From a virus (lineage: Duplodnaviria > Heunggongvirae > Uroviricota > Caudoviricetes): 24,179 nucleotides of DNA. The translations under genes and the position numbers were made by a program. This document shows, one piece after another, positions 12,332 through 21,568 of this stretch; position 1 is the first letter of the stretch; each line of letters begins with the position of its first letter. The stretch lies in IMG/VR virus record IMGVR_UViG_2711768048_000001. One strand, written 5' to 3'. A model generated the notes under the pieces. The model searched no databases, was not told the origin of the DNA, and worked only from the letters and a program-made list of their open reading frames with translations.

Positions 12332-12834
12332 CTGTGTCGTCGCTCCGGCTTCAGTGATTTACGCAATTCCCGCGCCAGAAAATAGCGTGTCCAGCTGCGG
12401 TTCTTTTCAAGCGTTTCCACCATGAAGTTATTACGTGGAGCCAGTCGCCAGCCGCTGCCACCGGATGCACCACGATGATGACTGCGACGACGTTTTGCCC
12501 CTCGCCTCACGCCATAGAACAAAAAAGCCGGATAAAAATCACCGGTGATACGGCGGTTTCCCTCTCCATTACGCTGGTTAGGGGCTATACGTGCCATAAA
12601 ACCAGGGCGATGTTTACTGGCTCTGGGTACCATGTAACCAATCGAACGAGCCAGGCGTCCGGTCTGATAACCGGGGTTTTCACCCGGTGCCGACCGCGCA
12701 CGGCGCATCACCAGCCGACGGGCATCACGCATATGACGCTGACCAATCGTGACAAACGCCCGCCGGACACGGGCGCGGTTAAAGCGCATCTCCGCGGGCT
12801 GCTGAAAATCAACGTGCAAAAAGGAAGTCGTCAT
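12328..12834 (-). CDS. Head-tail joining / tail component protein (HK97 gp10-like, tentative)
   Basis: 168 aa, very basic, within the connector block; start overlaps the upstream gene. Confidence 0.4.
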   Translation of the reverse strand: MTTSFLHVDFQQPAEMRFNRARVRRAFVTIGQRHMRDARRLVMRRARSAPGENPGYQTGRLARSIGYMVPRASKHRPGFMARIAPNQRNGEGNRRITGDFYPAFLFYGVRRGAKRRRSHHRGASGGSGWRLAPRNNFMVETLEKNRSWTRYFLARELRKSLKPERRHR

Positions 12835-18821: not shown

Positions 18822-19316
18822 TCAGATTGTCAGAAACGGGTTAGTGGCTTTCTTCTTCCCCGCCAGGCCAATCAGACGCTGGCGGCTGCTGGGGTCGAGT
18901 CCGAGCATTGCCCCCGTGCTGCTCATCTCGGACTCCTGTTCTTTTTTGGCGGTCAGCTCCGGATTTTTGACCATGCCACCCATTGCACCGGTGATGGTGT
19001 TACCCTGTCTGGCAATATTTTTCACGGCACGTCGCCAGAACTCATAGGCCACACACCACCGCTCAAGTACCGCCAGGTCAGTCACGCACAGCAGGCCCTG
19101 ACCGCAGAGTTCTTTGGTTGTCAGTTGCCACATGATCGTGGCGAGAGGGAGATCTTCTTCAGCGAACCACTCCGGTGGCTCAACACCTTTGATGGGCGTA
19201 AAAACAGGTTCATCTTTATTCAGGGCTCGCTTGCCGGGGTTTCCGGCCAGCGCCTTGCGCGCCGTTGGCTTGGGGCGACGCCCGGAACGCCCCGCCGTTC
19301 CAGCCATATGCGGCAC
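18822..19316 (-). CDS. Terminase small subunit (P27 family)
   Basis: Start is probably the ATG at 19307 ([14 protein letters not shown]…); the track ORF begins at a GTG at 19316. Basic N-terminus, immediately upstream of TerL. Confidence 0.75.
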
Positions 19317-19432: not shown

Positions 19433-19783
19433 TCACTTCAACCGTTCACGGGCCGTCTTCGCCTTATGACACGGCCAGCACAGACTCTGCAGATTACAGT
19501 CGGCATCAGTGCCGCCATGCGCTTTAGGGATGATGTGGTCAACGGTTTTCGCCTCACGTACCACACCACCACGCAGACATAACTGACACAGGCCTTTGTC
19601 ACGCTTCAGTACACGTTCACGGATAGCATCCCATTTCGAACCGTAGCCGCGCTGATGACGGGACTGGCCTGGCTTGTATTGCCTCCAGCCTTCGCTTTTG
19701 TGGCTTTCGCAGTAGCCTGACGGGTCTGTGGTGGTATGGCGGCAGCCACGAACACGGCAGGCTTTTGGGATTCGTGATGGCAT
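19433..19783 (-). CDS. HNH endonuclease (packaging-associated)
   Basis: C-terminal HNH motif (…TVDHIIPKAHGGTDADCNLQSLCWPCHKAK…) plus an upstream Cys/His cluster. Likely start is the ATG at 19783 with a GGAG ribosome-binding site; the track ORF extends to 19882. Confidence 0.8.
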   Translation of the reverse strand: MPSRIPKACRVRGCRHTTTDPSGYCESHKSEGWRQYKPGQSRHQRGYGSKWDAIRERVLKRDKGLCQLCLRGGVVREAKTVDHIIPKAHGGTDADCNLQSLCWPCHKAKTARERLK

Positions 19784-19870
19784 ATGTACTCCAATGAAGA
19801 AGCCACCGACATAGCCTCCTCCATTCATCGTGAAACTATTTTCATCTACCCAGTAATGAATTCTTTGTAG

Positions 19871-19925
19871 AGTTGTGATCAATACAACTCACTAATGGAG
19901 AGGCTTGTCCAACACGTTGGACAAG
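19871..19925. repeat. Two adjacent perfect inverted repeats (gagttgt-N7-acaactc and cttgtccaac-ac-gttggacaag)
   Basis: Read directly at 19871..19891 and 19904..19925; no convincing U-tract on either strand. Confidence 0.6.
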
Positions 19926-20005
19926 TTTCCTGTTTGATTTACTGGACACTATAGAAGGACAGAATGCCTTCATCACTCGAATAACATCAATTAAGGAGGT
20001 TCAAC

Positions 20006-20128
20006 ATGTTTCATTCCACAAATCATCAGGCTGTAATTATGGCTGCATCAGCTTGTGCCACAGACCTTTTCCGCTTCACTTTGAGCCTGATTCATTTCTA
20101 CCTGACCGGCTCGCCTCTATCTTTTTAA
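20006..20128 (+). CDS. Small hydrophobic ORF (40 aa) with a consensus Shine-Dalgarno sequence, unknown function
   Basis: AAGGAGG at 19993..19999, 6-nt spacer, ATG at 20006. Translation MFHSTNHQAVIMAASACATDLFRFTLSLIHFYLTGSPLSF. Same strand as bor and upstream of it. Confidence 0.4.
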   Translation: MFHSTNHQAVIMAASACATDLFRFTLSLIHFYLTGSPLSF

Positions 20129-20308
20129 TCCCCGCTTTATCCAAATTGCATTGCCAGAATGCCGACAACAGACTGACATTCAAATCCTGACTACCTCCAA
20201 TAGTCTGACCGTACACCTATATAGTTTTAATTTTCATCAATCCATTTAACTATCGTTTAATTGTTGTCACATAGGATTCTGCCGTTTTTAACAATGCAGG
20301 ATAATAAG

Positions 20309-20602
20309 ATGAAAAAAATGTTGTTTTCTGCCGCTCTGGCAATGCTTATTACAGGATGTGCTCAACAGACGTTTACTGTTGGAAACAAACCGACAGCAGT
20401 AACACCAAAGGAAACCATCACCCATCATTTCTTCGTTTCGGGAATTGGACAGGAGAAAACTGTTGATGCAGCCAAAATTTGTGGCGGCGCAGAAAATGTG
20501 GTTAAAACAGAAACCCAGCAAACATTCGTAAATGGATTGCTCGGTTTTATTACTTTAGGCATTTATACTCCGCTGGAAGCGCGGGTGTATTGCTCACAAT
20601 AA
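20309..20602 (+). CDS. bor: Bor lipoprotein (lambda Bor / Iss family, serum-resistance moron)
   Basis: 97 aa MKKMLFSAALAMLITGCAQQTFTV… with lipobox LITGC; close to lambda Bor as I remember it; convergent with Rz, as in lambda. Confidence 0.9.
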   Translation: MKKMLFSAALAMLITGCAQQTFTVGNKPTAVTPKETITHHFFVSGIGQEKTVDAAKICGGAENVVKTETQQTFVNGLLGFITLGIYTPLEARVYCSQ

Positions 20603-20613
20603 TTGCATGAGTT

Positions 20614-20631
20614 GCCCATCGATATGGGCAG
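20614..20631. terminator. Hairpin between the convergent bor and Rz genes (possible bidirectional terminator)
   Basis: tgcccat-cgat-atgggca; overlaps the last Rz codons; no strong U-tract. Confidence 0.25.
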
Positions 20632-20633
20632 CG

Positions 20634-21095
20634 CTATCTGCACTGCTCATTAATATACTTCTGGGTTCCTTCCAGTTGTTTTTGCATAGTGATCAGCCTC
20701 TCTCTGAGGGTGAAATAATCCCGTTCAGCGGTGTCTGCCAGTCGGGGGGAGGCTGCATTATCCACGCCGGAGGCGGTGGTGGCTTCACGCACTGACTGAC
20801 AGACTGCTTTGATGTGCAACCGACGACGACCAGCGGCAACATCATCACGCAGAGCATCATTTTCAGCTTTCGCATCAGCTAACTCCTTCGTGTATTTTGC
20901 ATCGAGCGCAGCAACATCACGCTGACGCATCTGCATGTCAGTAATTGTCGAGTTCGCCAGCTTCAGTTCTCTGGCATTTTTGTCGCGCTGGGCTTTGTAG
21001 GTAATGGCGTTATCGCGGTAATGATTAACAGCCCATGACAAGCAAACGATGATGCAGATAACCAGAGCGGAAATAATCGCGGTTACTCTGCTCAT
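20634..21095 (-). CDS. Rz: Rz i-spanin
   Basis: 153 aa, essentially the lambda Rz sequence ([48 protein letters not shown]…). Confidence 0.9.
20693..20875 (-). CDS. Rz1: Rz1 o-spanin lipoprotein, embedded in the +1 frame of Rz
   Basis: 60 aa [47 protein letters not shown]… with a lipobox and proline-rich region, as in lambda Rz1. Confidence 0.85.
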
Positions 21096-21568
21096 ACCTC
21101 AATCTCTCTGACCGTTCCGCCTGCTTCTTTGAATTTTGCAATCAGGCTGTCAGCCTTATGCTCGAACTGACCATAACCAGCGCCCGGCAGTGAAGCCCAG
21201 ATATTGCTGCAACGGTCAATTGCCTGACGAATATCACCGCGATCAATCATCGGTAAAGCGCCACGCTCTTTAATCTGCTGCAATGCCACAGCGTCTTGGC
21301 TTTTCGGAGAGAAGTCTTTCAGGCCAAGCTGCTTACGATAGGAATCCCACCAACGGGAAAGAAGCTGGTAGCGCCCGGCTGCTGTTGATTTGAGTTTTGG
21401 GTTTAGCGTGACAAGTTTGCGAGGGTGATCGGAGTAATCAGTAAATAGCTCTCCGCCTACAATGACGTCATAACCATGATTTCTGGTTTTCTGCCGTCCG
21501 TTATCCGTTCCTTCTGACCATGCCACCATATCGAGGAAAGCCTTACGCTGAGGATTAAGATTTTGCAT
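21092..21568 (-). CDS. R: Endolysin R (lambda-type lytic transglycosylase)
   Basis: 158 aa; …[64 protein letters not shown]… matches lambda R except for the first ~7 residues. Confidence 0.9.

Follow-up and report, generated by a model that had tools for sequence, protein, structure and literature searches.

Upstream of bor/iss in a temperate HK97/lambda-like prophage, we found a compact unit in which a 40-codon ORF stands behind apparent copies of two promoters of lytic phages. The window analyzed here is the whole stretch of 24,179 nucleotides of the IMG/VR record IMGVR_UViG_2711768048_000001, and the unit is located on its plus strand. Judged from the sequence, the layout of the unit is a T7-type promoter (P1), a palindrome of SP6 phages, a K1-5/SP6-type promoter (P2), a brief leader that is unstructured apart from a 5′ hairpin, AAGGAGG-N6-ATG and a 40-aa peptide. 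Recognition of P1 and P2 by phage polymerases is strongly implied by these matches, and we infer that the promoters would fire in vivo, that the peptide would be synthesized and that it would have an anti-phage effect. The reading that we prefer, and hold for slightly more probable than not, is that when a T7-like or SP6/K1-5-like phage infects, its polymerase transcribes the cassette, which yields a small, possibly membrane-active peptide and would work as a tripwire for abortive infection.

The ORF occupies 20006–20128 on the plus strand (ATG at 20006, TAA at 20126–20128) and encodes 40 aa, MFHSTNHQAVIMAASACATDLFRFTLSLIHFYLTGSPLSF. An earlier note on this DNA had drawn attention to a 40-aa ORF preceded by AAGGAGG and a 6-nt spacer, and this is confirmed in the sequence: the Shine-Dalgarno (SD) motif AAGGAGG is at 19993–19999 and the spacer TTCAAC at 20000–20005 places it 6 nt before the ATG. 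That note overlooked the T7-type and K1-5/SP6-type promoter matches upstream of the ORF on the same strand. The unit was detected in 632 of 5426 complete E. coli genomes (about 12%), nearly always as a single chromosomal copy, and its carriers include ST131 and O157:H7 strains. RefSeq annotates nothing at the ORF in these 632 genomes, and one phage record in GenBank labels it as a hypothetical protein. The locus tags between HNH and iss in NZ_CP038857 (L001) jump from RS12640 to RS12650, which suggests that a gene call was once made there and later withdrawn. A protein search with the peptide returned 20 close relatives, and a scan of species-representative genomes returned one irrelevant 1.1-kb contig. 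Frameshifted versions of the ORF account for a few protein-database entries, mostly from single contigs.

P1 (CAATACAACTCACTAATGGAGAG, covering −17 to +6 at 19880–19902 on the plus strand, predicted +1 at G19897) is a predicted promoter for the single-subunit RNA polymerases of the T7 family (Studiervirinae). It has two mismatches to the T7-family consensus TAATACGACTCACTAATGGAGAG, and no match was obtained in 100 shuffles. The promoter matrices used for scoring were built from 6 to 17 sites each, and P1 reached 30.2 bits on the matrix from eight promoters of the T7-like lytic contig IMGVR_UViG_3300034358_000001, whose own promoters score at least 26.9 bits. This contig uses promoters of the form ACTCACTAATGG(A/G)GA at least eight times, and the 16-mer ACTCACTAATGGAGAG of P1 is identical to one of them. 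The next-best T7-type site in the window scored 8.7 bits. When the matrix was instead made from the 17 annotated promoters of T7, P1 scored 22.4 bits, just below the range of T7's own promoters (at least 26.0 bits), so T7 proper may use the P1 of the window poorly.

Between the two promoters, 11 nt upstream of P2, lies a perfect 10+2+10 palindrome of 22 bp, CTTGTCCAAC-AC-GTTGGACAAG (19904–19925, plus strand), which is predicted to form a hairpin near the 5′ end of any P1 transcript and was marked as terminator-like by a scan. Its core is present in at least 9 copies in SP6 and in 4–9 copies in other SP6-like lytic genomes, often 6–15 nt upstream of promoters or as hairpins before ribosome-binding sites. 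Some prophage variants of the palindrome have both arms altered jointly (CCAAC/GTTGG to CTCAC/GTGAG), which gives the K1-5 form; this second form in the E. coli units, GTCTCAC..GTGAGAC, is the one that K1-5 has beside its own promoters. Throughout SP6-like genomes, an 18-bp palindrome (A/T)GTC(C/T)AAC-RY-GTTGGACA, with GTCTCAC-RY-GTGAGAC as its K1-5 version, is repeated beside promoters, before ribosome-binding sites and once within the primase/helicase gene. Its sites are at 492, 6092, 6263, 7070, 8546, 9382, 14254, 17751 and 30568 in SP6 (L129) and at 6000, 9569 and 14560 in K1-5 (L376).

P2 (ATTTACTGGACACTATAGAAGGA, 19937–19959 on the plus strand, predicted +1 at G19954) is a predicted promoter of the SP6/K1-5 type (Molineuxvirinae), and in all of its 23 bases it agrees with a promoter that K1-5 has at position 12580 (NC_008152). 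Its score of 37.1 bits on the K1-5 matrix is at the level of the best promoters of K1-5, whose own sites range from 28.3 to 37.4 bits, and the next site in the window scored 7.7 bits. The 18-mer TACTGGACACTATAGAAG of P2 has 137 occurrences in IMG/VR, 67 of them in intact prophage units and about 68 at promoters of K1-5-like lytic phages; the remaining two are in a truncated unit (L092) and at one unclassified site (L355). Several K1-5-like contigs of 43–45 kb contain this 18-mer 3 to 5 or more times each. According to fold prediction, the P2 transcript would start with a 5′-terminal hairpin of 5 bp, GAAGG-N8-CCUUC (19954–19971, plus strand), after which the leader (52 nt in the window unit, 60% A+T) would be unstructured up to an exposed SD. 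At the equivalent position, Klebsiella units have GAACG...CGUUC, in which both sides of the stem are altered. A scan of 19700–20700 for sigma-70-like promoters found none for the ORF, under settings so strict that the bor/iss promoter was missed as well; on this ground the unit is probably silent in the uninfected lysogen. An Rfam search of the region gave only a chance match to a miRNA. On the minus strand, a 44-codon frame at 19842–19976, also open in SfIV (43 codons) and with no SD, overlaps P1, the palindrome and P2; it is probably a by-product of the conservation of the plus-strand elements.

The unit is found where the lysis module of the prophage meets the packaging module, and it is not on the strand of the late operon but on the other one. 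This lambdoid operon runs on the minus strand through holin, lysozyme and Rz/Rz1 (20634–21568, with Rz/Rz1 itself at 20634–21095), then the HNH endonuclease (19433–19783), and then the small terminase of P27 type (18822–19316) and the large terminase; bor/iss is on the plus strand at 20310–20602. The stretch around the ORF had been described as otherwise non-coding, which is only partly right, for the 3′ end of a LysC-type (Rz1-like o-spanin) gene lies on the minus strand at 20076–20216. This segment matched positions 35–68 of 69 of Pfam PF23793 (LysC; E=0.001, 19.4 bits against a cut-off of 27 bits) and is homologous to the intact gene of Shigella phage SfIV. We regard it as a relic because the N-terminal part, which bears the lipobox in SfIV, is missing, and as non-functional because a separate Rz/Rz1 is present in the window. 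The final 53 nt of the ORF, which make up its 3′ third, are antisense to the lysC relic. The position of the relic beside a lambda-type Rz/Rz1 cassette reflects an old exchange of the lysis module with a crossover within lysC, and an equivalent relic is present in Klebsiella prophages (L005 2556–2756). The segment 19783–20195 shares 85% identity with SfIV, where it is flanked by HNH and the intact LysC-type o-spanin gene and bor is absent. The idea that the intergenic region is cos was rejected; in SfIV the genome has its end, at cos, past the HNH gene, which places cos between HNH and terS and not at the unit. On the other side, the 120 nt upstream of bor/iss (20190–20309) travel with that gene in lambda, 434, phage 21 and several hundred E. 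coli plasmids, which are ColV-type as judged by iss, and the true left edge of the bor/iss moron is at about 20190.

All versions of the unit that we found keep the order of promoter, palindrome, promoter, leader, SD and short ORF; they are placed where the lysis genes meet the packaging genes and run against the direction of late transcription. Their promoters are exchanged. The window version combines a P1 of the T7-like contig group (30.2 bits) with a K1-5 P2 (37.1 bits), SfIV a T7 P1 (26.2 bits) with an SP6 P2 (32.3 bits), L042 a T7 P1 (29.8 bits) with a K1-5 P2 (35.5 bits), the Klebsiella version L021/L082 a T7 P1 (31.7 bits) with a P2 of the ZK1 group (31.4 bits), and L069 a P1 of K11/KP32 type (27.0 bits) with a ZK1-like, partly decayed P2 (22.4 bits). 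The P1 alleles of SfIV, L042 and L021 thus reach the range of T7's own promoters. The ZK1-type promoter TAATAGTGGCGAGTATAGAAG is multi-copy in SP6-like phages of Klebsiella such as vB_KpnP_ZK1. The Klebsiella P1 allele scored only 22 bits on the K11/KP32 matrices, and its exact 18-mer was absent from the lytic contigs searched. Among the E. coli-type units, P2 varies chiefly at −12 to −10, the positions that set promoter specificity in this family of single-subunit polymerases. Moreover, P1 and P2 belong to different polymerase families and no single lytic phage has both, so one captured fragment does not account for the pair.

Downstream of the promoters, every prophage variant has a strong SD and a hydrophobic ORF of 36–40 aa with the same end relative to lysC, except L067, in which the frame runs on past about 40 codons, and L187, which is a decayed copy. 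L067/L397 (10414–11029) carries a near-consensus T7 promoter, AACTCACTATAGGGAG, together with a different SP6-type promoter, and its plus-strand frame, with no stop after about 40 codons, continues antisense through an Rz1-like gene. The leader of the Klebsiella units is about 50 nt longer and contains the conserved blocks TTTAATGTTACACGAGTAGGAACAG and AAGTTACACAATAGAA (L005 2400–2500; equivalents in L021, L025, L069 and L088), which have a promoter-like look. Two motifs in this leader, GTTACMSGAGTAGGARC and GTTACACAATAGAA, were considered as a third and a fourth promoter and found unsupported, as neither is multi-copy in any lytic contig searched.

We scored 96 copies of the unit in IMG/VR. 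The ORF is intact with exactly 40 codons in all 91 primary copies, which carry 20 peptide variants, so the conservation of the frame in relatives, a check named in the earlier note, came out in favor of the ORF. The SD region ATTAAGGAGGTTCAAC is identical in 82 of the 96 copies. Five copies are decayed tandem duplicates, each of them 286 nt upstream of an intact copy, and they serve as a natural control: the hairpin, the P2 core, the SD and the ATG are all lost together in the upstream copies and all kept in the downstream ones. This tandem duplication includes the 5′ end of HNH (L335 10377–10835; also L328, L334, L357 and L364). Along the unit, variant alleles per nt are fewest from SD to ATG (0.11), followed by P1 (0.17), the leader (0.17), the C-terminal half of the ORF (0.19), P2 (0.35) and the N-terminal half of the ORF (0.49), and they amount to 0.66 and 0.79 in the flanks. 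The pattern of a conserved core between variable flanks may in part come from mosaic joints rather than from selection.

Within the ORF, the C-terminal half (LFRFTLSLIHFYLTGSPLSF) is conserved and the N-terminal half is variable. The substitution counts are small and come from related sequences with evident recombination among the alleles: the C-terminal half has 12 variant alleles, of which 8 are synonymous and 4 nonsynonymous (p=0.004 against the neutral expectation), and in the N-terminal half, 26 nonsynonymous alleles stand against 3 synonymous ones, with dN/dS of about 2.3 between the two main alleles. No purifying selection is evident in the N-terminal half; diversifying selection fits this pattern, and absence of constraint fits it too. 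At 20009–20065 there are two or three sharply distinct N-terminal alleles (such as the window type and the SfIV type), nearly all of whose differences change amino acids, and these alleles recombine independently of the promoter type. In the C-terminal half, 7 of the 12 alleles are at third positions of the ORF, which are second positions of lysC codons, so the constraint is on the frame of the ORF and not on lysC. The Klebsiella units encode other peptides of 36–38 aa (families A′, B and C) with pairwise dN/dS of 0.1–0.44. In the non-overlapping N-terminal half of family C, pS is 0.75 and pN 0.32 (p=0.009), and family B shows 3 synonymous against 1 nonsynonymous change. Conserved start signals, an intact frame, synonymous bias and analogous ORFs in diverged relatives make up the sequence evidence on which we conclude that the ORF has the behavior of a real small gene.

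The product is most plausibly a toxin-like or membrane peptide. Over 19 residues, the highest Kyte-Doolittle score is 1.40 in the window allele, 0.90 in SfIV and 1.83–2.31 in the Klebsiella families A′ and B. The earlier suggestion of one likely membrane helix is thus weak for the window allele itself, while the Klebsiella relatives are of transmembrane grade. Searches of Pfam, PHROG and PADLOC with the peptides gave no match to any family, toxin and defence families included. When families B and C were compared by tblastn with 50,697 phage records, the hits were in temperate Klebsiella phages only, apart from a chance match to nrdA, so these families were found in temperate and not in lytic phages.

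Since the ORF lies behind copies of promoters of T7-like and SP6/K1-5-like lytic phages, the peptide is probably made only upon infection by such phages. In the proposed sequence of events, the unit would be silent in the uninfected lysogen. A T7-like or SP6/K1-5-like lytic phage would produce its own single-subunit RNA polymerase early in infection, this polymerase would recognize P1 or P2 on the prophage, and an abundant and well-translated mRNA would result. The target of the small hydrophobic peptide would then be the infected cell, most plausibly its membrane or the timing of its lysis, to the harm of the invader. We count in support of this reading the identity of P2, the score of P1, the presence of two polymerase families, the swapping of promoters, both forms of the palindrome, the small ORF in nearly every variant, the coding signal, the decayed duplicates, the negative result of the strict sigma-70 scan and the wide spread in E. 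coli. We count against it the score of P1 below the range of T7 itself, the pattern in the N-terminal half of the peptide, the modest hydrophobicity of the window and SfIV alleles, the frameshifted entries and the negative family searches. A wider proposal, which we offer tentatively and hold for somewhat less probable than its absence, is that the units are modular DNA-sensor tripwires in temperate phages of E. coli, Shigella and Klebsiella. They would carry promoter copies of the locally circulating lytic phages in front of a small toxic or lysis-perturbing peptide and would swap modules to track those phages, and the rapid change in the N-terminal half of the ORF may be the mark of an arms race.

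Among the other explanations, the one that survives best, though we consider it unlikely, accepts the small gene as real and takes the promoter matches as inert leftovers of recombination with lytic podoviruses, so that the host polymerase would express a lysogenic moron or a modulator of lysis or spanins. The coding signal agrees with it, and the unit always adjoins the 3′ end of lysC at the lysis-packaging junction, which is a classic site of morons. A possible donor is also at hand, because T7, SP6 and K1-5 each have a segment of tandem promoters with a small ORF. However, the scan described above found no sigma-70-like promoter, and P1 and P2 come from different polymerase families. Variation is lower in both promoters than in the flanks and the N-terminal half of the ORF, the promoters of relatives differ mainly at the specificity positions or by replacement of the whole promoter, and in the duplicated copies the promoters decay along with the SD and the ATG. 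Moreover, the peptides are absent from lytic phages.

A further explanation, less probable again, leaves the ORF untranslated. The product would be an RNA, made by the invading polymerase and antisense to lysC or the late operon, or the DNA itself would trap the polymerase, and the frame would be kept open by the antisense lysC segment. It is true that the 3′ 53 nt overlap lysC, that the N-terminal half evolves in an unconstrained manner and that a transcript would run antisense into the lysis genes. On the other hand, changes in the overlap at third positions of the ORF and second positions of lysC are the opposite of what constraint by lysC would produce, and lysC in the window is only a relic. 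The 19 nt from the SD to the ATG are the most conserved in the unit, and three or four unrelated peptide families share the same SD, length and stop position. As for a trap, a site present in a single copy cannot titrate an abundant polymerase.

T7, SP6 and K1-5 have a common layout in which the polymerase gene is followed by a terminator, a promoter, a spacer, a second promoter and a conserved gene for a basic 42-aa protein (MRNFEKM...). It is found at 5820–6135 in T7 (L379), 6020–6468 in L129 and 5930–6380 in L376; in SP6 and K1-5 a palindrome stands before each promoter, and the order resembles that of the prophage unit. In T7 this region (phi1.1A/phi1.1B-gene 1.1) is the primary replication origin. 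One could therefore suppose that the unit mimics such an origin, with tandem promoters, A+T-rich DNA and a gene of about 40 codons, and that the prophage is copied by the invader's replication or disturbs it. We judge this improbable to a considerable degree, despite the tandem promoters and the 42-aa gene just past the polymerase gene in all three phages: P1 and P2 are for different polymerases, so that a given infection would activate one of them and not both, the leader has little length and is only moderately rich in A+T, and the ORF is unrelated to gp1.1 and gp8 and has its own coding constraint. Finally, the earlier suggestions that the ORF is a moron carried with bor or a leader peptide controlling bor/iss have next to nothing left in their favor beyond the shared strand and a gap of 181 nt between the ORF and bor, since bor and iss are both missing from SfIV and from many Klebsiella prophages in which the unit is present, lambda-type phages and plasmids have bor/iss without the unit and mostly share only 20190–20309, the bor/iss insertion begins near 20190, and RNA folding gave no attenuator structure connecting the ORF with bor/iss.

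A literature search, which included exact sequence strings and the genome paper of SfIV, found no prior description of the unit. The payload of only 40 codons explains how it escaped gene-based searches, common as it is (about one in nine complete E. coli genomes). If the reading as a payload for the invader's polymerase is true, the unit would represent a new mode of infection sensing, in which promoter specificity for a foreign polymerase takes the place of a protein receptor for a phage product. This would be relevant to phage therapy, in which podoviruses like K1-5/K1E, SP6 and T7 are among the foremost candidates for use on E. coli and Klebsiella. In addition, laboratory strains with the unit might suffer unexpected toxicity when T7 or SP6 polymerase is expressed in them. 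The ORF is also a clear case for studies of gene origin, as the conserved half of a small gene is overprinted antisense on the tail of another gene.

With respect to known systems, the unit is like the bor and lom morons of lambda in its site between the lysis and packaging genes and its orientation opposite to late transcription, but it occurs independently of bor, and the host polymerase probably does not express it. Its signals are like those of late genes in Autographiviridae (T7 phi10-type; K1-5/SP6), with a 23-bp promoter, a 5′ hairpin, an open leader and an optimally spaced AAGGAGG. In contrast to these phages, it is located in a temperate prophage that encodes no single-subunit polymerase, it pairs promoters of two polymerase families, and the gene that it would drive does not occur in lytic phages. 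A likeness to type I toxin peptides (Hok, TisB, Ibs, Ldr and ShoB) is seen in the peptide of 36–40 residues, which is hydrophobic in most of the families and whose synthesis would have to be off in healthy cells. Unlike them, the unit shows no sequence similarity to these toxins, no antisense RNA (Rfam) or host promoter (sigma-70 scan) was found, and the window allele is moderately hydrophobic; its control would be exerted by promoter specificity for a foreign polymerase.

Resident DNA that is transcribed only when an incoming phage supplies the machinery is known from P2 Ogr and P4 delta and from the promoter-restriction cassettes of phage phi31 in Lactococcus. The former is a relationship of satellite and helper that works with the host polymerase and an activator, whereas the latter triggered-suicide cassettes are engineered and man-made; in the literature that we searched, we found no natural prophage unit that uses promoters of single-subunit polymerases. 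Similarly, in exclusion by Rex, in Lit/Gol and in the exclusion of T7 by F through PifA, a resident element answers a specific product of the infecting lytic phage. There, a protein senses a phage protein or peptide, whereas the sensor that we propose for the unit would be DNA, a copy of the invader's own promoter.
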